DNA of 64,000 nucleotides, taken from assembly GCA_016716665.1 (NCBI GenBank), contig JADJVH010000013.1, positions 38,824 to 102,823 of the forward strand. The letters are read 5' to 3'. Below are positions 4,573-63,986 of this stretch, in pieces. The stretch is from Candidatus Opimibacter iunctus. GTDB taxonomy: Bacteria; Bacteroidota; Bacteroidia; Chitinophagales; Saprospiraceae. The position numbers and the translations under genes were made by a program. The first letter of the stretch is position 1; every line of letters begins with the position of its first letter. The notes under the pieces were generated by a model. It worked only from the letters and a program-made list of their open reading frames with translations, ran no database searches and was not told where the DNA came from.

Positions 4573-4603
4573 GGGGCACATGATTATGTGCCCCTTCGTT
4601 TTT
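4573..4603 (+). terminator. Rho-independent terminator
   Basis: Stem ggggcacat, loop gatt, stem atgtgcccc, followed by ttcgttttt. Confidence 0.8.
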
Positions 4604-8680: not shown

Positions 8681-8705
8681 TTCTAAATGCTGTAGCATTT
8701 AGTTG

Positions 8706-8750
8706 GCGGAAGAGGCTGAAGAGGCCAAAGGGGCTGAAGAGGCTAAAGGC
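8706..8750. repeat. Tandem 9-mer array, 5 copies, consensus GCTGAAGAG
   Basis: gcggaagag gctgaagag gccaaaggg gctgaagag gctaaaggc. The reverse-complement family recurs at 39214-39275. Confidence 0.9.
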
Positions 8751-8789
8751 AGGTGCGCAATTAGCAAAGATGCTGAGTCACACCCACAC

Positions 8790-8837
8790 TTCTCACGTTC
8801 TCACGTTCTCACGTTCTCACGTTCTCACGTTCTCACG
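8790..8837. repeat. Tandem 8-mer array, 6 exact copies of TTCTCACG, preceded by the CA-rich leader cacacccacac
   Basis: ttctcacg x6, read directly from the sequence. Confidence 0.95.
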
Positions 8838-8867
8838 ATCACCGATCACTCGATCACCGATCACTCG
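8838..8867. repeat. Tandem 15-mer, 2 copies of ATCACCGATCACTCG; overlaps the stop codon of the minus-strand gene 8861-9580
   Basis: atcaccgatcactcg atcaccgatcactcg. The TGA (tca at 8861-8863) of the convergent gene lies inside copy 2. Confidence 0.9.
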
Positions 8868-9580
8868 ATATCAAAGTCTACGTGATAATGATCATCATGA
8901 AACATATTGACGAGATCACTGAGATGAGAGATGATACGAATTTCCCTTCGCTGTAGTTCTTTACCGGATGACGTGCTGTAGAGTTCATCCTGCATATTGG
9001 TATTGAACAATATCTTATGAATCTTCAGGCCGTTTTGACGGGCAGCATCATCCAGGGCAAGGATGTGTCTGGCCATAGTCTCAAAATCAATCTGTGTCTT
9101 ATGGTTGATCGCTAATTGCCCATCCTGGTTGAATTGCAACAGGTAGTGCAGCAATCCCCACCGTGTGGTCCAGGTTTGTTTGTGATCTGTCCTGATCGTG
9201 GGGACCATAAAATCTACGCTTGTACCATTCTGATGCGTCCAGTGAAAAAGCATGCGCCCTCCTTTCCTTCGGGTACATTCCATCAGGATAAATTCTTTTC
9301 CGGGACAGGTGGTTTCGCAGGTTTTGTATGCATCAGTCAGCGTCTTGTAGACACGTGAGTTGACATACGCATTGTTGAGGATGTAATAACTGAAGCGGTC
9401 AAAGTAATGGAAGTTGTCACCCTTAAACGGCATGAGCCATCCGTTGCGCAATTTTCCTGAGCGGACGCTACCTTCAGAGACGGTGGCGCCTTCATTGGTG
9501 TGCACCATCTCCGGTATGGAAAGTATTCCAAACAGGATCACAATGGTGCCCAGGAATATCCAGCGCTTTTTTACGTTCAT
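8861..9580 (-). CDS. LAS-superfamily zinc peptidase resembling penicillin-insensitive murein endopeptidase (MepA/M74-like)
   Basis: N-terminal TM/signal segment. Motifs HWTHQNGTSVDF (H-x-x-H-Q-x-G-x-x-V-D) and FHDDHYHVDF resemble the MepA metal ligands. Confidence 0.55.
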   Translation of the reverse strand: MNVKKRWIFLGTIVILFGILSIPEMVHTNEGATVSEGSVRSGKLRNGWLMPFKGDNFHYFDRFSYYILNNAYVNSRVYKTLTDAYKTCETTCPGKEFILMECTRRKGGRMLFHWTHQNGTSVDFMVPTIRTDHKQTWTTRWGLLHYLLQFNQDGQLAINHKTQIDFETMARHILALDDAARQNGLKIHKILFNTNMQDELYSTSSGKELQRREIRIISHLSDLVNMFHDDHYHVDFDIE

Positions 9581-10245: not shown

Positions 10246-10255
10246 GTTTTATTTA

Positions 10256-10366
10256 CCCCTAAATCCCCTGAAAGGGGACCTTTTTCAATAGTATCATGAT
10301 AAAATGAAAGTAATAATTTTTATGTCCAATTGATTGGAGAAGGGTCCCCTTTAGGGGATTTAGGGG
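10256..10366. repeat. 111-bp element: 24-25-nt inverted arms (CCCCTAAATCCCCTGAAAGGGGACC / GGTCCCCTTTAGGGGATTTAGGGG) around a 62-nt AT-rich core; MITE-like or long hairpin
   Basis: The arms at 10256-10280 and 10343-10366 are reverse complements apart from 1 nt. A third solo arm lies at 32927-32950. Confidence 0.8.
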
Positions 10367-10399
10367 CCCATTTTTCACTTTTCTTTTTTCGTTTTTCAC

Positions 10400-12817: not shown

Positions 12818-12942
12818 GTCAACTAATTCAATTTATTAAACAACTTATTCCTAACTGCTCATGAGAGGCCACGGTTTGAAAGCCGTGGCAATTCAATTTC
12901 CTGACTTAGGAGCCAGGTCTTCCTCTCATGAAATATTTTTAT

Positions 12943-12977
12943 CCTTGCCCCTTGCTCCTTGCTCCTTGCTCCTTGCT
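12943..12977. repeat. Tandem heptamer array, 5 copies of CCTTGCT (CAAGGAG/AGCAAGG on the sense strand of the hmgA-fahA operon); overlaps the hmgA stop codon
   Basis: ccttgcc ccttgct ccttgct ccttgct ccttgct. The hmgA TAG is cta at 12976-12978. The same word occurs at 42715-42742. Confidence 0.95.
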
Positions 12978-14210: not shown

Positions 14211-14244
14211 CGTATTTTTACGAAATATATTTCCACGAAATACG
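14211..14244. repeat. 34-bp quasi-palindromic element, copy 1 of 3
   Basis: cgtatttttacgaaatatatttccacgaaatacg. The core cgaaatatatttcg is palindromic. Confidence 0.85.
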
Positions 14245-15672: not shown

Positions 15673-15706
15673 CGTATTTTTACGAAATATATATCGCCGA
15701 AATACC
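15673..15706. repeat. 34-bp quasi-palindromic element, copy 2 of 3
   Basis: cgtatttttacgaaatatatatcgccgaaatacc. Confidence 0.85.
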
Positions 15707-15728: not shown

Positions 15729-15762
15729 CGTATTTTTACGAAATATATTTCGCCGAAATACG
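15729..15762. repeat. 34-bp quasi-palindromic element, copy 3 of 3
   Basis: cgtatttttacgaaatatatttcgccgaaatacg. gtattt...aaatac and cgaaata/tatttcg can pair. Confidence 0.85.
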
Positions 15763-17332: not shown

Positions 17333-17418
17333 CCTATGCCCTAAGGGGCTCTCTGCCCTTTGCCCTATGCACTCTGCACTCTGCCCTATGCACTATGCTC
17401 TTTGCACTATGCTCTATG
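17333..17418. repeat. Tandem heptamer array, about 12 copies, consensus CMCTWTG (ccctatg/cactctg/cactatg/ctctatg)
   Basis: From 17356: ccctttg ccctatg cactctg cactctg ccctatg cactatg ctctttg cactatg ctctatg. The same family occurs at 39168-39212. Confidence 0.9.
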
Positions 17419-17454
17419 CTTTTTTCCTACCTTCGCCCTTCGATTACACAAGTT

Positions 17455-19499
17455 ATGATCCATCCCCCCCAGCGATATATCGTGACATCGGCATTGCCAT
17501 ATGCCAATGGCCCACTCCATATAGGACATCTCACCGGTGCTTATCTCCCTGCTGATATTTTCGTCAGGATGCTGCGTATGCTCGATAATGATGTGGCTTT
17601 TATATGCGGCTCTGACGAACACGGCGCAGCAATCACCATCCGGGCCCTGAAGGATAACAGCACCCCTCAGGCCATTATCGATAAGTACCATGCACTCTTC
17701 CAGGAGACGTTTCTGAAAGCCGGCATCTCATTCGATATCTATCACCGTACCTCCTCACCACTGCACCACGAGACCGCCCAGGAATTTTTCAGATCACTGT
17801 ATGCCCAGGGCCAGTTTGTAGAAGAAGAGTCCGAACAATATTATGACCAGGAAGCCGGCAAATTCCTCGCCGATCGCTATATCAAGGGCACCTGCCCAAA
17901 GTGCAGCAACCCCGATGCATACGGAGACCAATGCGAACGCTGCGGTTCATCCCTCAGCCCACTCGAACTGATCAACCCCGTATCCACGATCACAGGGACT
18001 AAGCCAGAATTGCGAAAGACCAAACACTGGTATTTGCCTCTTGATAAATACGAATCCTGGTTGCGCACCTGGGTCGAAACCGGCGTCCTCGACGGCGTAG
18101 AACACCACGACCCTGCAGATTGGAAAACACACGTGATCGGCCAGTGCAAATCATGGCTCGATGGCGGATTACAACCCCGCGCCATGACCCGCGATCTCGA
18201 TTGGGGAGTTGATGTGCCACAGGAAATTCCAGGATCCGCCGGCAAGAAATTATATGTGTGGATGGATGCACCCATCGGCTATGTCTCTGCTACAAAGCAA
18301 TGGGCTGCCGACAATGGAAAGGACTGGAAAGCGTATTGGCAAGACCCTGAGTCTTCGCTCATCCATTTTATCGGCAAAGACAACATCGTCTTCCATTGCC
18401 TGATCTTCCCGGCGATACTCAAAGCACATGGGCAGTATAATCTACCTGTAAATGTTCCGGCCAATCAGTTTCTGAATCTCGAAGAACAAAAGATATCTAC
18501 TTCGCGCAACTGGGCGATCTGGGTACATGAGTTCCTCAATGAGAATCCGGATCAGACAGATGCATTGCGATATGTCCTGACGTACTCACCCATAAGTTTT
18601 GCGATGGCAAGGTGCCTGAGTTTGATGAGGATACACCGATCGTAGGTACCAGGGGTGATGATGAAGCTTCATGGCATGAAGTTGAAATGATGGACCTGTT
18701 TGACCGCATGTGGAATGTACAGGATGCCATTTCAAAATATGATTTCAGGGCTGGACTCAAGGCAATGCTGGACATTGCATCTGCAGGTAATCAACTCCTG
18801 CAGTTCAATGAGCCATGGAAAGCACATAAGGAGGATCCTGAAAGCGTAGTCGTCGTGCTCAACCTATGCATTCAATACCTTGGGGCATTGAGCTATGCTA
18901 TGCATCCATTTATGCCTGGCGCATCAGCACGTTTGAGGAAATTACTTGCACTCAATCCGATCATCGAACAAGGCTCATGGGTGACTACCCTTGATGCACT
19001 ATCGATGGGCGAAAAATTGATTCCCGAAGGACATACGATCAATCAGCCGGAACATCTCTTCAGCAGGATCGAAGATGAGTGGATCCAACTGCAGATTGCA
19101 AAGCTGCATGAAATGTCTGCTGCAGCGGTTATAGCAACAGCAGAAGCTGTCGAGGCTGCTCCTGTAGTAGAAAAGCCTGCTGTATCGTATGATGATTTTG
19201 CAAAACTGGACATCCGCACGGCTAGAATACTAGCCGCAGAAAGCGTACCTAAAGCAGATAAGCTACTCAAACTCACACTGGATGTCAATGGAGTGCAGCG
19301 CACCGTAGTGAGCGGCATTGCTAAACACTATAAGCCTGAAGATTTGCCTGGCAAGCATGTGGTTATCCTCGCAAACCTGGAACCGCGTAAAATACGCGGA
19401 GTAGAATCGCAGGGGATGATCCTGATGGCTGAATCAGGCGATGGCCAGCTTCATTTTGTGCAGGCTGCTACAGATGAAAGCGGTCTGGCTATCAGCTAA
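17455..19499 (+). pseudogene. metG: Methionine--tRNA ligase, interrupted by an internal deletion of about 36 codons plus a frameshift at 18574-18590
   Basis: ATG at 17455 gives [26 protein letters not shown] (HIGH motif). KISTSRNW is the KMSKS-type motif. The C-terminus carries a tRNA-binding (EMAP/Trbp111-like) domain, KLDIRTARILAAESVPKADKLLKL. ORF1 ends ...DALRYVLT then YSPISF... out of frame. ORF2's frame reads [17 protein letters not shown]. Between LRYVLT and VLTHKF, other MetRS carry about 36 aa (ANAPETKD..FQARNNNELV..GNFVNR..). Confidence 0.85.
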
Positions 19500-23372: not shown

Positions 23373-23693
23373 CTGGTAGCTGGTGGCTGATAGCTGATAG
23401 CAAATTCTTAATCACGCCCACTCTCACTCCCACACTACCGGTAGCTGGTAGCTGGTAGCTGACGGCTGTCAGCTCAAACCAAATCCCTATCCCCCACATA
23501 CTCAGATCTCACACAACTGGTAGCTGGTAGCTGGTAGCTAGTAGCTGGTAGCTGACGGCTGATAGCTGACGGCTTTTAGTCAAATCCCTAACACACTCAC
23601 ACTCTAACACACACCACTGGTAGCTGGTAGCTGGCGGCTGATAGCTGACAGCTGATGGCTGATAGCTGATAGCTGACGGCCGATAGCTCAAAC
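23373..23693. repeat. Higher-order repeat: four heptamer arrays (CTGGTAG then CTGAYRG), each preceded by a related 32-37-nt CA-rich leader
   Basis: The arrays are 23373-23400 (4 copies), 23438-23479 (6), 23517-23579 (9) and 23617-23693 (11). The leaders are caaattcttaatcacgcccactctcactcccacacta, caaatccctatcccccacatactcagatctcacacaa and tcaaatccctaacacactcacactctaacacacacca. The last heptamer, ctcaaac, contains the fumC stop codon (tca at 23688-23690). Confidence 0.95.
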
Positions 23694-30664: not shown

Positions 30665-31048
30665 ATGTTACGAATCGCGATGATTGCCCATGACGGAAAG
30701 AAAGCAGACCTGGTCTCTTTCCTCCTGCACAACAAGGAGCTCTTCAGGACTGCTCAGCTTGTAGCCACAGCCACAACCGGATCTTTTCTTGAAAAAGCAG
30801 GTTTTCAGGTCACAAAGGTGCTCTCCGGCCCGAAAGGAGGGGATGCCCAGATAGGTGCCAAGCTTGCAAATGGAGAAATAGATTTTGTCTTCTTCTTCCG
30901 GGATCCGCTCGGCAAGCATCCTCATGAACCTGATGTGCAGATGCTGATGAGGCTTTGCGATGTGCATAATATTCCATTGGCCACTAATCCTGCCTCTGCC
31001 GAATACCTCCTGAAAGGAATGATAGCCGACGAGCATACGGATATATGA
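30665..31048 (+). CDS. mgsA: Methylglyoxal synthase
   Basis: 127 aa: IAMIAHDGKKADLVSF...ATTGS...GPKGGDAQIG...FFRDPLGKHPHEPDV is typical of MgsA. Confidence 0.9.
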   Translation: MLRIAMIAHDGKKADLVSFLLHNKELFRTAQLVATATTGSFLEKAGFQVTKVLSGPKGGDAQIGAKLANGEIDFVFFFRDPLGKHPHEPDVQMLMRLCDVHNIPLATNPASAEYLLKGMIADEHTDI

Positions 31049-32880
31049 CCGATGAGGATTTTAAGGCAATAGCTGATTCTGTTCCCAAAGAACCGGGCGT
31101 ATATCGGTTTCTCAATCCGGAAGGGACTGTCATCTATGTCGGTAAGGCAAAGAACCTGCGCAACCGGCTCTCCTCCTATTTCGGGGACAAGAAGTACCAG
31201 TACTTCAAGACCCGGACCATGGTCAGGCAAGCGCATCATTTTGAGTTTACCATTGTTGAAAGTGAGCAGGACGCGCTGTTGCTCGAAAACACGCTCATCA
31301 AGCAGATACAGCCTAGATACAATGTCAATCTCAAGGATGACAAGTCCTATACATTCATTTGCATCAAGGCCGAACGCTTTCCCCGTGTTTTCCTCACACG
31401 TAGGGTGATCAGGGATGGCTCAACTTATTTTGGGCCATATACATCAAAGGCCAAGGTGAGTGAGATACTCGAAATCGTCAAGAAGATTTTTCCTTTGAGG
31501 ACCTGCCCATTGTTGTTAAATCCCCAGCCGATTGCAGCTAAGAAGTACAAGGTCTGCCTGGAGTACCACATCAAGAACTGCATGGGCCCATGTGAAGGCC
31601 TGGAGACAGAGGAAGCCTACAATGCCCGAATAGACCAGGTGCGCAATATCCTCAAGGGGCACTTCAGGGATGTCATCCAGCATCTCAAGAAGCAAATGGA
31701 CGCCTTTGCTCTCGACATGGAGTTTGAAAAAGCACATCAGATAAAGGAAAAGCTCACCCTGTTTGAAGACTATCAGGCAAGGTCAACTGTGGTCAGCCAA
31801 ATGGACCGCGACCTCGATGTCTTCAGTATAGCAACAGATGAGACACACGCCTATGTCAACTATCTCAAAGTCGTGCAGGGGGCCATTATCAATAGCTATA
31901 CCCAGGAGCTGCTCAAAAACCTGAATGAAGACGAGCATGAACTATTGGCCTTTACAATCGATCGCCTTCGTGAAAAATTCAATAGCATCACCGAAGAGAT
32001 CGTCGTGCCCTTTAAAGTGGAGTTGGTAGAGCAAGGCGTGACACAGACTGTTCCCCAACGTGGAGAGAAGAAAGAATTGCTCGACCTCTCCCTCAAGAAT
32101 GTAAAGTATTTCCTGCTGCAAAAGCAAAAAGAGAAGATCAACCATACGCAAAAACAGACACCTGCAGAACGAATCCTGAAGACTTTGCAGCAGGATCTAC
32201 GCATGACTGGTATTCCGATGCATATTGAATGCTTCGACAACAGCAACATTCAAGGCACTAACCCTGTAGCATCATGTGTGGTCTTCAGGAATGCCAAACC
32301 TGCCAAGCGTGATTACCGCCACTTTCATGTCAAGACAGTCGAAGGCCCCGATGACTTTGCCTCGATGCGTGAGATCGTCGAGCGGAGGTACAAGCGCATG
32401 ATGGAAGAAAACCAGCCATTGCCTGATCTTGTGGTCATCGATGGAGGCAAGGGCCAACTAAGTGCTGCAATGGAATCTATTGAAGCCTTGGGTATCCGTG
32501 ACCGAATGACCGTTGTTGGAATCGCAAAGAAGCTGGAAGAGATTTATTTTCCAGGTGATTCTATTCCCTTGTACATCGATAAGAAATCCGAATCCCTCAG
32601 GCTCATCCAGCAGATTCGCAACGAAGCCCACCGCTTTGCGATCACCTTTCACCGCAACACGCGCAGCAAGGCTTTCGTCAATACGGAGCTCAAAGGCATA
32701 AAAGGGGTAGGGGAAAAGACCGCCGAAAAACTCCTGAAGCATTTCGGTTCGGTCAAGAAACTGAAGGACGCTGCTGAGGAAGACATCATCAAGCTGGTAG
32801 GTCCATCCGTAGCCTCTAAGCTATTGGCCTCACCTGTCTTTATCAAGCCTGAAAGGAGGGAGACGGCCGTCTCCGAATAG
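31045..32880 (+). CDS. uvrC: Excinuclease ABC subunit C
   Basis: 611 aa. GIY-YIG N-terminus (PGVYRFLNPEGTVIYVGKAKNLRNR). The UvrBC-interaction, endonuclease and C-terminal HhH regions are present. ATGA overlap with mgsA. Confidence 0.95.
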   Translation: MTDEDFKAIADSVPKEPGVYRFLNPEGTVIYVGKAKNLRNRLSSYFGDKKYQYFKTRTMVRQAHHFEFTIVESEQDALLLENTLIKQIQPRYNVNLKDDKSYTFICIKAERFPRVFLTRRVIRDGSTYFGPYTSKAKVSEILEIVKKIFPLRTCPLLLNPQPIAAKKYKVCLEYHIKNCMGPCEGLETEEAYNARIDQVRNILKGHFRDVIQHLKKQMDAFALDMEFEKAHQIKEKLTLFEDYQARSTVVSQMDRDLDVFSIATDETHAYVNYLKVVQGAIINSYTQELLKNLNEDEHELLAFTIDRLREKFNSITEEIVVPFKVELVEQGVTQTVPQRGEKKELLDLSLKNVKYFLLQKQKEKINHTQKQTPAERILKTLQQDLRMTGIPMHIECFDNSNIQGTNPVASCVVFRNAKPAKRDYRHFHVKTVEGPDDFASMREIVERRYKRMMEENQPLPDLVVIDGGKGQLSAAMESIEALGIRDRMTVVGIAKKLEEIYFPGDSIPLYIDKKSESLRLIQQIRNEAHRFAITFHRNTRSKAFVNTELKGIKGVGEKTAEKLLKHFGSVKKLKDAAEEDIIKLVGPSVASKLLASPVFIKPERRETAVSE

Positions 32881-32893
32881 CAAAGGATCGCGC

Positions 32894-32914
32894 GTTGAGG
32901 TCTCCTGCCTCGAT
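32894..32914. repeat. C-TCCT-G loop hairpin, copy G1
   Basis: gttgagg tctcctg cctcgat; the stem includes G:U-type pairs. Confidence 0.7.
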
Positions 32915-32926
32915 ATCTTACATTTA

Positions 32927-32950
32927 CCCCTAATTCCCCTAAAGGGGACC
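32927..32950. repeat. Solo copy of the CCCCTAAWTCCCCTRAAAGGGGACC arm
   Basis: cccctaattcccctaaaggggacc, with the same left flank (atttac) as the copy at 10256. Confidence 0.8.
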
Positions 32951-32997
32951 TGATTTATTTTAATAAATGAAGTTTTATATCAAAAATGATGCGCTCG

Positions 32998-33018
32998 TTG
33001 AGGTCTCCTGCCCTCGAC
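32998..33018. repeat. C-TCCT-G loop hairpin, copy G2
   Basis: gttgagg tctcctgc cctcgac. Confidence 0.7.
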
Positions 33019-33070
33019 ATTCTAAAATACCTTATTGAAATACCTTGATTAAAATTCATAATCGAAATTC

Positions 33071-33092
33071 ATTGAGGTCTCCTGACCTCAAT
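33071..33092. repeat. C-TCCT-G loop hairpin, copy G3 (perfect 9-bp stem)
   Basis: attgaggtc tcct gacctcaat. Confidence 0.85.
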
Positions 33093-33152
33093 ATCCTTAA
33101 ATACAAAAGGGAATCCCATTTAAGAACTCCCTTTTCATTTTCTTTATTCAAT

Positions 33153-33205
33153 CCCACACCCACACCCACACCTCTCACTGTCTCACTGTCTTACCTTCTT
33201 ACACA
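33153..33205. repeat. CA-rich leader (cccacacccacacccacacct) plus a tandem 8-mer array of 4 copies (ctcactgt ctcactgt cttacctt cttacaca)
   Basis: The octamers occupy 33174-33205 and end 2 nt from the TAA (tta at 33208-33210) of the thioredoxin-like gene. Confidence 0.9.
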
Positions 33206-33207
33206 GT

Positions 33208-33705
33208 TTAGTTGCCTCCAAGCGCCGCCACTTCTTTCTCCACTGCATCATGCAGGTAATACCCCATTTCAAGCACCTGCGCCGCTGTCGCCGGGCCTTC
33301 GTGGCGCTTCATGATCTTTCCTTTTCCATCTACAAACAATAGGGTGGGAAAGGTGGTTACGCCATAGCGGTCAGCGAGTTCAGCTTCCTTGACAGGGCCG
33401 CCGACATTGATCTTGTAGTTGACAAAATGGTTGTTGAAGTAGGAGGCCAGTTCATCCTGGGTGTATACGTACTGATCCATTCGCTTGCAGGACTCAACCC
33501 ATGGTGCATAGAAATACATGAATACGGGCCGCTGCATCAGGTCGGCAAATTCGAGCAAGTAGCCCAGGTTGGCACAGTCAGCAAACTGCAGGTCCTGTGA
33601 ACAGGAGGCAGGCCGCACAACTACCTTGGTGTAGGGCTTTGGCGAACAGCACAGGAAGGCGCAGAGGGTTATCCCCGCAAAGACGGACTTGGAAGATAGG
33701 ATCAT
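33208..33705 (-). CDS. Thioredoxin-fold lipoprotein with a degenerate active site
   Basis: Signal/lipobox-like N-terminus (...LCAFLCCSPK). FMYFYAPWVESCKRM stands in place of WCxxC. FPTLLFVDGKGK is typical of the thioredoxin fold. Confidence 0.5.
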   Translation of the reverse strand: MILSSKSVFAGITLCAFLCCSPKPYTKVVVRPASCSQDLQFADCANLGYLLEFADLMQRPVFMYFYAPWVESCKRMDQYVYTQDELASYFNNHFVNYKINVGGPVKEAELADRYGVTTFPTLLFVDGKGKIMKRHEGPATAAQVLEMGYYLHDAVEKEVAALGGN

Positions 33706-39042: not shown

Positions 39043-39087
39043 AAGTCGGCAGTGGCCAGTCACCAGTCGCCAGTTGGCAGTCTCCAG
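39043..39087. repeat. Tandem heptamer array, 5-6 copies, consensus CAGTNNC
   Basis: (aagtcgg) cagtggc cagtcac cagtcgc cagttgg cagtctc cag. Confidence 0.85.
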
Positions 39088-39105
39088 GGGTCCCCATCCT
39101 GATCG

Positions 39106-39125
39106 TTCAAGTCTCCTGACTTGAA
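39106..39125. repeat. C-TCCT-G loop hairpin, copy F1 (perfect 8-bp stem)
   Basis: ttcaagtc tcct gacttgaa. The left flank gatcgttca is shared with the copy at 62854. Confidence 0.85.
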
Positions 39126-39136
39126 TGCCATATGTT

Positions 39137-39154
39137 TTGCGTCTCCTGACGCGA
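39137..39154. repeat. C-TCCT-G loop hairpin, copy F2
   Basis: ttgcgtc tcct gacgcga (7 bp including one G:U-type pair). Confidence 0.75.
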
Positions 39155-39167
39155 GAGCAGGAATCTC

Positions 39168-39212
39168 CCCTCTGCTGCCCTATGCTCTCTGCCCTATGCT
39201 CTCTGCTCACCG
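39168..39212. repeat. Tandem heptamer array, about 6 copies of the CYCTMTG family
   Basis: ccctctg (ctg) ccctatg ctctctg ccctatg ctctctg ctcaccg. Confidence 0.9.
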
Positions 39213-39213
39213 C

Positions 39214-39275
39214 CTCTTCAGCCCTTCGGCCTCTTTAGCCTCTTTGGCCTTTTCAGCCTCTTCAGCCTTTCTTAT
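39214..39275. repeat. Tandem 9-mer array, about 7 copies, consensus CTCTTYAGC (reverse complement of the GCTGAAGAG family at 8706-8750)
   Basis: ctcttcagc ccttcggc ctctttagc ctctttggc cttttcagc ctcttcagc ctttcttat. Confidence 0.9.
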
Positions 39276-42701: not shown

Positions 42702-42714
42702 TGGTCAATATGCC

Positions 42715-42742
42715 CCTTGCTCCATGCCCCTTGCTCCTTGCC
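42715..42742. repeat. Heptamer array, 4 copies of the CCTTGCT family
   Basis: ccttgct ccatgcc ccttgct ccttgcc. Confidence 0.85.
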
Positions 42743-42750
42743 CGCCGCCT

Positions 42751-42782
42751 CTCACTGTCTCACTGTCTTACTGTCTTACACC
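42751..42782. repeat. Tandem 8-mer array, 4 copies (ctcactgt ctcactgt cttactgt cttacacc)
   Basis: Same family and same order of variants as at 27971-28002 and 33174-33205. Confidence 0.9.
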
Positions 42783-59582: not shown

Positions 59583-59688
59583 ACTGTGAGTTGTGAGCTG
59601 TGAGTTGTGAGTATGTCACGAGTCAGACGTGAGAGTAAGTGGCGAGAGTAAGTTGTCAGAGTATGTGGCGAGAGTCAGTCGTGAGTGA
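59583..59688. repeat. Degenerate tandem array: GTTGTGA heptamers (59583-59610), then GTGAG/GTAAG/GTCAG-rich words that resemble the reverse complement of the CTYACTGT octamer family
   Basis: actgtga gttgtga gctgtga gttgtga gtatgtc acgagtc agacgtg agagtaa gtggcga gagtaag ttgtcag agtatgt ggcgaga gtcagtc gtgagtg. Confidence 0.75.
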
Positions 59689-62163: not shown

Positions 62164-62847
62164 ATGCCTGTATTTGCCCTTGATGACGAACTGATTTTTC
62201 CACATCCTTCCCTTCGTGAACCTGATGGCCTCATGGCTGTCGGTGGTGATTTATCTCCGCAACGATTGTTACTGGCCTACCGATGGGGTATCTTTCCATG
62301 GTATCACGAAGGCCAACCCATTCTTTGGTGGTGGCTTGCACCCAGGCTCATGGTCAGGCCTGAAGATGTACACGTATCCCATTCGGTGCGAAATGTGATC
62401 AATAAGAAAAAATTTGCGGTGACATTCGACAGTGATTTCACAACGGTCATGAAGCGGTGCGGCTCTGTCAACCGGGCAGGGCAGGAAGGCACGTGGATCA
62501 TGCCGGAGATGATTGATGCCTATACCTCACTGCATCAGCTTGGTTATGCGCATTCAGTAGAAGTGTGGGAAGGCGACCAACTCGTTGGTGGGTTGTATGG
62601 TATTGCCCTCGGCCGTATTTTTTTTGGAGAAAGTATGTTTGCTGAGAGCCCCAATGCCTCAAAAGTTGGATTTGTATTTTTTGCACAACATCTCGCTTCA
62701 CTTGGATTCCTGTGGATCGATTGCCAGCAGGATACACCGCATATGCGATCCCTCGGAGCAGACCTTGTGGAGGAAGAAGATTTCATGCATATCCTTCGCG
62801 AAAATCAACTTCATATGATGAATCATAAACCCACGACACTTTTGTAA
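62164..62847 (+). CDS. aat: Leucyl/phenylalanyl-tRNA--protein transferase
   Basis: FPHPSLREPDGLMAVGGDLSPQRLLLAYRWGIFPW...VEVWEGDQLVGGLYGIALGRIFFGESMF is typical of Aat. Confidence 0.9.
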   Translation: MPVFALDDELIFPHPSLREPDGLMAVGGDLSPQRLLLAYRWGIFPWYHEGQPILWWWLAPRLMVRPEDVHVSHSVRNVINKKKFAVTFDSDFTTVMKRCGSVNRAGQEGTWIMPEMIDAYTSLHQLGYAHSVEVWEGDQLVGGLYGIALGRIFFGESMFAESPNASKVGFVFFAQHLASLGFLWIDCQQDTPHMRSLGADLVEEEDFMHILRENQLHMMNHKPTTLL

Positions 62848-62861
62848 AAAGGAGATCGTTC

Positions 62862-62882
62862 AGCGTAGCCTCTGGCTGCGCT
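62862..62882. repeat. Hairpin related to the C-TCCT-G family (loop TCT), copy K1
   Basis: agcgtagcc tct ggctgcgct, with the left flank gatcgttca shared with the copy at 39101. Confidence 0.6.
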
Positions 62883-62926
62883 ATATAAATTCATTTGAAA
62901 TCACGTCCTACTGAAAGTCAGTCTCA

Positions 62927-62942
62927 GCCGCCTCCTGGCGGC
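62927..62942. repeat. C-TCCT-G loop hairpin, copy K2
   Basis: gccgcc tcct ggcggc. Confidence 0.7.
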
Positions 62943-63026
62943 ATGTACAAATCATTTCCTAGCTAAGCGCCAGTATCTTAATTTCCCTCTAAGATCCAGA
63001 ATATAGACCTGAAGTCTTTTTAGGGG

Positions 63027-63986
63027 CTACTTCGAAAAATGACCGATTATCAACCCAGCTAACTCTCTCCCCACATTTTCCTGCGCTTCCACTGTAGAGC
63101 CCCCAACATGTGGCGTCAACGATATCCTGGGATGTGTGAGGATATCAGCACGTGGAGTTGGCTCGCCAACAAAAACATCAATACCGGCCCCTCCAATCTG
63201 TCCCGAATTCAATCCCTCAATCAAAGCATCTTCATCAAACACACCGCCACGTGCTGTATTGATCAGGATAACCCCTTTTTTCAGGATAGCGAGTTCCTCT
63301 TTTCCGATGACAGGTTTATCTGCCTTAGGAATATGGATAGTGATGATATCCGATTGGCTCAGCAAGGTATTTATATCGGTAGTATGAATATCAACAGACA
63401 GGCTTTGTTGTGCGCCTGGAATAGTGATGACGATCTTCGCTTCTTTCACAAACGGATCGGAGGCTATTACATTCATCCCTAATCCTAAGGCAATACGAGC
63501 CACTTCCTGGCCGATACGCCCAAACCCAATAATCCCTATCGTTTTTCCGAGTAATTCATTGCCTTCACTGCATTGCTTCTTGAGCTTGGCAAATTCAGTA
63601 TTGCCGGTCACCGGCATCGCCCTGTTAGCAAGATGCAATTGCCGCGCCAGGGTAAAGGCATGTGCAGTCACCAGTTCAGCGACTGATCTTGAGGAAGCTG
63701 CAGGAGTATTGTACACGCCAAGTCCTTTCTCTCTCGCATAGGTCACATCGATATTGTCCATCCCTACACCTCCACGCCCGATCACTTTGAGATTAGGACA
63801 CGCATCAATCAATGGCTTCCGCACCTGCGTGGCGCTGCGTACAGTGATGGCATCAAAATTTTTCAATTCCGCTTCAAGCTCTTCAGCTTTATAGTGCGTC
63901 GTCACCACTTCAAAGCCCGCCGCTTCAAGCATGGCTTTACCTGTATCATCTATGCCGTCATTGGCCAGTATCCTGATCTTGCTCAT
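63027..63986 (-). CDS. serA: D-3-phosphoglycerate dehydrogenase (short form) / D-2-hydroxyacid dehydrogenase
   Basis: 319 aa. NAD motif GIIGFGRIGQEVA. Catalytic-region NTARGGVFDE...TPHVGGST. Confidence 0.75.
   Translation of the reverse strand: MSKIRILANDGIDDTGKAMLEAAGFEVVTTHYKAEELEAELKNFDAITVRSATQVRKPLIDACPNLKVIGRGGVGMDNIDVTYAREKGLGVYNTPAASSRSVAELVTAHAFTLARQLHLANRAMPVTGNTEFAKLKKQCSEGNELLGKTIGIIGFGRIGQEVARIALGLGMNVIASDPFVKEAKIVITIPGAQQSLSVDIHTTDINTLLSQSDIITIHIPKADKPVIGKEELAILKKGVILINTARGGVFDEDALIEGLNSGQIGGAGIDVFVGEPTPRADILTHPRISLTPHVGGSTVEAQENVGRELAGLIIGHFSK

Follow-up and report, generated by a model that had tools for sequence, protein, structure and literature searches.

The seven hairpins of the window, by which we mean the whole 64,000-nt stretch of DNA that was analysed, probably belong to a family of short palindromic repeats that is lineage-specific, REP/BIME-like and dispersed in the chromosome of an uncultured member of the Saprospiraceae from activated sludge (probability roughly 0.6). 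REP-like, the term proposed in a preceding sequence-only reading of this DNA, is the best description of these structured, intergenic and dispersed repeats, but the GTAG and CGTC tags of described REPs are absent. The family adds an example to a known class of genomic repeats and does not constitute a new type of system. Proteobacterial repeats of this small palindromic type have been studied well, and Saprospiraceae are abundant in activated sludge. As far as literature searches show, no palindromic repeats of Saprospiraceae have been described, and those of Bacteroidota hardly so.

Pfam scans of the ORFs in the window identified T9SS proteins, a SusC/SusD pair, uvrC, metG and other housekeeping genes, and the window is ordinary Bacteroidota chromosomal DNA. 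The nearest named homologues of its UvrC are assigned to Saprospiraceae, and exact-protein look-ups returned no record of this UvrC or of the mutase. Wastewater and activated-sludge metagenomes were the sole sources of DNA nearly identical to it. The methionyl-tRNA synthetase gene (17395-19499) is divided into two overlapping frames (17395-18645 and 18612-19499), which reflects a frameshift or a sequencing error, and no homopolymer is present at the split site. Canonical U-tract terminators were observed at 4573, ~7390 and 46610 of the window.

All seven hairpins that had been claimed are present in the window sequence, all of them on the + strand and all between genes, though intergenic DNA accounts for only ~9% of the window; the three loci that hold them lie within that fraction. 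One of the earlier coordinates was shifted by a single position (c2 starts at 32997, not 32998), and the remaining six hairpins were found. The first locus lies between two convergent genes, uvrC (31045-32880, +) and a thioredoxin-like gene (33208-33705, -), and holds three hairpins. The first repeat copy, c1 (32892..32927, +), contains a hairpin at 32894-32914 (gttgaggtc-tcct-g[A deleted]cctcgat) whose start is 14 nt past the uvrC stop codon and whose predicted RNA fold has an energy of -9.0 kcal/mol (z -1.4). The second, c2 (32995..33030, +; hairpin 32997-33018), has a T x C mismatch adjoining the loop (A>C), and the third, c3 (33069..33104, +), forms the perfect hairpin attgaggtc-TCCT-gacctcaat at 33071-33092 (fold z -4.4). 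The second locus, between the divergent genes for an M16 peptidase (-) and methylmalonyl-CoA mutase (from 39288, +), holds c4 (39104-39127, +; cgttcaagtc-TCCT-gacttgaatg) and c5 (39135-39156, +; ttttgcgtc-TCCT-gacgcgaga). The true start of the M16 peptidase is probably at ~38998, because the gene calls of relatives are ~30 residues shorter. The third locus, between the convergent genes aat (62164-62847, +) and 2-hydroxyacid dehydrogenase (63027-63986, -), holds c7 (62862-62882, +; agcgtagcc-TCT-ggctgcgct) and c6 (62927-62942, +; gccgcc-TCCT-ggcggc).

The claim that these are not chance palindromes is supported by their intergenic placement, the excess of a shared 10-mer over shuffled sequence, the enrichment of the TCCT loop and the behaviour of a covariance model. 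The 10-mer GTCTCCTGAC occurs three times in the window vs ~0.12 expected, and with one mismatch allowed there are nine matches vs 3.1 +/- 1.9 in shuffles (at least nine in 0/100 shuffles). Every one of its independent occurrences (c3, c4, c5 and L026, a contig of a related species) lies inside a stem of at least 7 bp. TCCT is the loop of 3/27 perfect tetraloop hairpins (stem at least 6 bp) in the window and of 1/460 tetraloop hairpins in 0.98 Mb from distant relatives. The covariance model, R1, was built from 12 copies and searched with filters off. In the 64 kb it recovered the six training copies and the untrained c7 (E=0.08) and nothing else; since no eighth member was found, the earlier list of seven is complete for the window.

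Covariation of the stems, which had also been proposed, was confirmed. Among the 12 aligned copies, 93.5% of cells are paired and 6/9 pairs have changed on both sides, a score observed in 0/500 shuffles; these counts are partly circular, since several copies were found as hairpins, and the unbiased evidence is the 10-mer test and the L026 homologue. When the register of the alignment is slid, pairing falls to 20-44%. Two stem positions differ between c3 (TTGAGGTC/GACCTCAA) and c4 (TTCAAGTC/GACTTGAA), and both are compensated. The second hairpin of L026 (gcttgtc-TCCT-gacaagc) is separated from c5 by three double compensatory changes plus one wobble-to-Watson-Crick change. In a DNA palindrome, hairpin-templated repair can also give rise to compensatory changes without selection. 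Nearly all non-Watson-Crick pairs in the stems are G:T on the + strand, and the 55-nt segment that comprises c4 and c5 folds at -25.4 kcal/mol (z -6.1) on the + strand vs -18.1 (z -2.4) on the - strand. Because of these wobble pairs and the better fold, the structure is assigned to the TCCT strand. The pairs had been taken as a sign of RNA; they do favour the + strand, but G:T cannot separate RNA from single-stranded DNA.

The hairpins do not represent seven independent copies, as had been assumed, but three loci, namely a local triplication and two composite units. In the triplication, c1-c3 are three copies of one 36-nt direct repeat with spacings of 103 and 74 nt, and they are found at single-copy metagenome depth. 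The same three copies, all with perfect 9-bp stems, are present in strain L021, whose UvrC is 96% identical. Compared with the L021 orthologues, c1 has lost an A opposite T and c2 carries an A>C change, and the 7-nt and 8-nt loops that had been assigned to these two copies are instead damaged stems of the c3 type. These two copies are decaying in the strain of the window, which suggests weak or no selection on individual copies. The loop had been regarded as constant, and it is so within the window (that of c7 reads TCT), but across strains only its first two bases are kept. Orthologous loops read TCAA, TCCA and TCCT in L021 and TCCA in strain L014, and the c3 loop has changed to TCCC (33083 T>C) in strains from runs X2-X4. 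The conserved part of the apex comprises the first two loop bases and the flanking GTC/GAC.

The two composite units carry the evidence for dispersal. Unit A (39103..39157, +) is 55 nt long and consists of two head-to-tail hairpins, c4 followed by c5. In seven metagenomes from several studies its depth is 80-570 vs 8-25 in the flanks (10-25x), with the step exactly at 39103 and 39157, and 8-20 contigs per run carry it with differing sequence on either side. Given these sharp ends and the 10-25x flank depth, unit A is a dispersed repeat. A joint from 39157 to 39103 with a 20-nt spacer represents tandem unit A copies at another place, and one further copy lies directly 3' of a canonical terminator hairpin. 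Unit B (62855..62972, +; 118 nt) contains c7 and c6, starts 8 nt past the aat stop codon and is a low-copy dispersed repeat. A second locus with 88% identity and unrelated flanks was found in three runs, and a fourth run shows 2-4x depth. Copies beyond those listed, on which the existence of a family had been made to depend, were thus found in the form of unit A in many contexts, the second locus of unit B, L026 and probably L001, a Bacteroidota MAG. A resemblance of the spacer of unit A (TATGTTTTG) to the Bacteroidetes -7 promoter motif was set aside, as the match is imperfect and is not conserved in L026.

The left flank GATCGTTCA, which had been noticed before two of the hairpins, was confirmed at 39101 and 62854 and marks the left end of the two dispersed units. 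In unit A it spans 39101..39109 (+), with TCG(T) just 5' of the hairpin foot, and in unit B it spans 62854..62862 (+). TCGTTCA opens both units, and TCGTT directly precedes the stem in c2, L021a, L021b and the L001 copy. All seven window copies and their orthologues have one orientation (head-to-tail), and there are no inverted pairs among them. At the unit junctions, neither a target-site duplication nor a common target could be read.

The presence or absence of copies varies between strains with 96-100% UvrC identity. In L014 (98%), c4 and c5 are both absent, an unrelated ~110-nt element with hairpin ends replaces c1 and c2, and the c3 orthologue has gained one wobble and one mismatch. In species with 83-92% UvrC identity, the corresponding spacers hold quite different hairpins and tandem repeats. 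L026 (89%) carries a partial unit A (L026:1-41) at another locus, flanked by its ADH and S9 peptidase genes, and ~150 kb of close relatives yielded one new copy only. The search of 1.15 Mb of relatives with R1 found nothing beyond training copies, and no family member was detected in 69 loci (0.98 Mb) of Saprospiraceae/Lewinellaceae with 58-67% UvrC identity. A scan of a one-genome-per-species collection, in which the window's own copies are not included, with the pattern TTGAGGTCTCCTGN{0,1}CCTCRA gave 13 matches, about the chance number, in unrelated phyla. The L001 copy is probably real, because additional flank (GTTCG) matches and the palindrome is complete, and a match in L008 is doubtful as a family member. 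An exact c4 palindrome in two viral contigs (L113 and L114) was rejected as unrelated, as it lies inside a 471-aa ORF, and GTCTCCTGAC doublets in viral contigs were rejected as heptamer arrays or coding tandem repeats. Given the strain-level gain and loss and the absence from distant Saprospiraceae, the hairpin family is young, narrow and unstable. Intergenic turnover is very rapid between strains with 96-98% gene identity. The ~110-nt element (L014:6100-6210, also in L015-L017; L024:4920-5030) has the inverted ends GCAGGAG-TTTG-CTCCTGC / GCAGGAG-CAAA-CTCCTGC and is therefore MITE-like; it occurs at different loci in two relatives and nowhere in the window, and in L014 it adjoins the foot of the c3 orthologue.

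REPs are hairpins of 20-40 nt that lie mostly downstream of genes and vary between strains (PMC3733652, PMC6006769), and they form two superfamilies, GTAG-tagged and CGTC-tagged (PMC3733652). The present family shows REP/BIME-type traits, namely strand-specific hairpins with a foot motif, intergenic confinement, sharp ends without terminal inverted repeats, mosaics with other repeats and strain-level presence or absence. With the GTAG REPs and BIMEs of the RAYT/TnpA-REP type (E. coli, Pseudomonas) it has in common imperfect palindromes of 20-35 nt that are extragenic and mostly just downstream of genes, mosaics with other repeats, strain variation, a short 5' foot motif and a strand-specific structure. 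Unlike these, it carries TCG(T)/GATCGTT and not a GT[AG]G tag in its 5' flank, its modules follow one another head-to-tail instead of forming the inverted pairs that predominate in classical REPs, the host is a member of the Saprospiraceae, and there is no RAYT gene in the scanned DNA. Its copy number is in the tens vs hundreds, an estimate from metagenome depth alone that may sum several related species.

The CGTC REPs (PMC3733652) have stems of 8-9 bp beginning with A/T pairs, loops of 4-5 nt and short tails; their transposase is not known, and they are found in Bacteroidetes among other phyla. The 8-9 bp stem with an A/T start, the 4-5 nt loop, the short unpaired tail, the unpaired 5' tag and the lack of a known dedicated transposase resemble those of this superfamily (Di Nocera et al. 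2013, PMC3733652; Neisseria dRS3, Rickettsia RPE). However, the tag here is not CGTC/TGTC/CCTC, the tails are ATCC, ATCT, ATTC or TGCC vs a 3-nt consensus CCA, and all copies are head-to-tail whereas head-to-head dimers predominate there. At the ends of IS200/IS605 elements, as with REPs, a guide tetranucleotide 5' of the hairpin foot guides cleavage (PMC6006769). Like IS200/IS605 ends and their gene-less PATE-type miniatures, units A and B have two similar subterminal direct hairpins on the same strand and a guide tetranucleotide 5' of the foot, and they lack both terminal inverted repeats and an evident target-site duplication (PMC6006769), but the hairpins here are 1-3 nt from the unit ends vs 10-20 nt inside. 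On these sequence features we file the family as REP-like and in neither tagged superfamily, because neither tag is present and the head-to-tail modules are nearer to IS200/IS605 ends than to BIME pairs.

The basic module consists of an unpaired TCG(T) 5' of the foot, a stem of 8-10 bp running from T:A pairs to G-T-C, a 4-nt loop TC(Y)N, a GAC closing the other arm and a short tail. Joined head-to-tail, such modules make up the doublets of unit A (55 nt) and unit B (118 nt) and the local triplet c1-c3. The units may spread in the form of single-stranded DNA hairpins on which an HUH/Y1 transposase (RAYT or IS200/IS605 type) would act in trans, recognising the apical GTC-TC..GAC part together with the 5' tetranucleotide. 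Units landing in sense orientation just 3' of genes (uvrC, aat, the ADH gene of L026, and the L001 case) would be transcribed as a 3'-UTR stem-loop, with slower 3' exonuclease action or RNA polymerase pausing as a possible side effect. Bacteroidetes have their own subclass of RAYT/Y1 transposases, flanked by 'atypical secondary structures' (PMC6006769). Pfam scans of the window's ORFs revealed no Y1 transposase or RAYT, a motif scan of 1.5 Mb of the window and relatives' loci revealed no ORF with an HUH...Y motif, and the 1.5 Mb scanned contained no parental IS that combines tnpA or tnpB with matching ends. The modest copy number, the single-copy state of c1-c3 and the single new copy in ~150 kb of relatives count against the REP-like reading, as do the lack of either tag, the head-to-tail modules, the lack of a Y1 gene in the scanned DNA and the lack of a target-site signature.

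It is possible, though unlikely, that the hairpins define a third tag class among REP-type elements, characterised by a TCGT foot, a GTC-TCYN-GAC apex and doublets that are always head-to-tail, and mobilised by one of the Bacteroidetes-specific Y1 subclasses for whose substrates 'atypical secondary structures' is so far the only description; if so, they would provide a tractable substrate/enzyme pair for single-strand transposition in Bacteroidota. A role of the C-UCCU-G loops as an RNA-level recognition motif in 3' UTRs is less likely than such a class. In any case, the family is a concrete and compact substrate that could be matched to a Bacteroidetes Y1 transposase, and the fast intergenic turnover matters for MAG assembly (contigs break at these repeats), for strain typing and for the reading of 3'-UTR structure.

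The strongest alternative, in our view possible but unlikely, is that the hairpins are not mobile and are RNA stem-loops selected site by site, acting as terminators without a U-tract, as 3'-end stabilisers or, through the C-UCCU-G loop, as a motif for an RNA-binding protein. The positions of c1 behind uvrC and of unit B behind aat would suit such roles, and 4/5 loci are sense-oriented downstream of a gene and between convergent genes. G:U pairs are tolerated on the + strand only, and the orthologous uvrC-trx spacers of relatives always contain some hairpin, although of unrelated sequence. This alternative does not account well for unit A, a multi-copy 55-nt sequence with sharp ends that lies between divergent genes, and the canonical U-tract terminators at other sites of the window, the freedom of loop bases 3 and 4 among orthologues and the damage to c1 and c2 in the window's strain also speak against it. 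Moreover, unit A had no coverage in one metatranscriptome, a very thin run.

With regard to termination, the hairpins share with Rho-independent terminators a stable stem-loop structure and a position shortly after stop codons and between convergent gene ends; they differ in lacking a U-tract, in the placement of one unit between divergent genes, in the repetition of identical sequences and in the presence of canonical terminators elsewhere in the window. The lack of a U-tract had been stated before and was borne out, as a lenient scan flagged only c4 (+) and c3 (-), both marginally. The hairpins are not canonical terminators, because they lack a U-tract, because U-tract terminators are used elsewhere in the window, and because of the divergent-gene site and the unit A copy that follows a terminator hairpin. 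Within the REP-like reading, an effect on mRNA decay or pausing is plausible as a by-product, since most copies lie shortly after a stop codon in sense orientation.

It is rather improbable that the hairpins are non-functional by-products of slippage-prone intergenic DNA, arising through duplication or template switching, with their arms kept complementary by hairpin-templated repair. Nearly all intergenic regions carry other palindromes and tandem repeats of 7-9 nt that vary between strains, c1-c3 arose by triplication in place, and GTCTCCTGAC also arises inside CTCCTGA/CTCCTGT heptamer arrays (the viral-contig matches), all of which would fit such an origin. However, local slippage does not account for the many unrelated contexts in which the 55-nt unit occurs with the same sharp ends, nor for the second locus of unit B, the homologous unit of another species at a different place or the common TCGTT foot motif.

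There is very little to recommend a function of the - strand, on which AGGA (GGA) loops would serve as CsrA/RsmA-type protein sponges or Shine-Dalgarno-like decoys. Within the window every loop does read AGGA on that strand, as had been pointed out, closed by C-G, and the hairpins occur in multiples, as do such hairpins in CsrB/RsmZ-type RNAs. However, the - strand folds much more poorly (G:T becomes A.C), the orthologous loops become TTGA, TGGA and GGGA and lose the motif, no Rfam family matched the hairpins even at E<=1, and no RNA coverage was seen in the one very thin metatranscriptome. To our knowledge, CsrA is not usual in Bacteroidota, and Bacteroidota largely do without Shine-Dalgarno pairing. 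Palindromic operators for a dimeric DNA-binding regulator, suggested by the perfect 8-4-8 or 9-4-9 inverted repeats, their intergenic position and the one case in a divergent promoter region, are the least credible reading of all, as the arms differ between copies yet stay complementary, asymmetric G:T pairs and a strict one-strand orientation make no sense for duplex recognition, and most copies lie between convergent gene ends. A resemblance of GTTCAAGTC to a tRNA T-arm was dropped, as ARAGORN gave no match and the pairing partner of the motif is its own 3' arm, and type IIS restriction sites (GTCTC/GGTCTC) were dropped as an unnecessary reading.

Other repeats were also observed in the intergenic DNA of this lineage. 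A second hairpin repeat, TTACCCCTAATTCCCCTAAAGGGGACC, is found in the window at 32923-32956, 10253-10279 (+) and 10343-10369 (-), has sharp ends and 13-19x metagenome depth, and is more abundant than the TCCT-hairpin family; it is the clearer REP-like family of the lineage. Its variants (ACCCCCTGAAAGGGGG and similar) occur in the relatives L018, L024 and L025, and public assemblies have contig breaks at this repeat. A third palindromic repeat, CGTATTTTTACGAAATATATTTC..GAAATACG, has three copies in two intergenic regions (14211-14244, 15673-15695 and 15729-15762). In addition, nearly every longer intergenic region contains tandem arrays of 7-9 nt units of many different sequences, for example at 8705-8869, 12942-12977, 17354-17424, 23440-23688, 33153-33205, 39044-39087, 39170-39268, 42710-42776 and 59584-59679. 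They are reminiscent of heptamer repeats that have been reported from Cyanobacteria, Beggiatoaceae and a few Bacteroidetes (PMC4679880). Strains with 98% UvrC identity have different arrays, and the CTCACTGTCTCACTGTCTTAC array at 33167-33205 exceeds 100x metagenome depth. In L018 (UvrC 88% identical), the spacer between the M16 peptidase and mutase genes has grown to ~650 nt (L018:17740-18340) and comprises three tandem units of ~240 nt, each with inverted GAATAAC-type heptamer arrays and a CCCCCT..AGGGGG hairpin.
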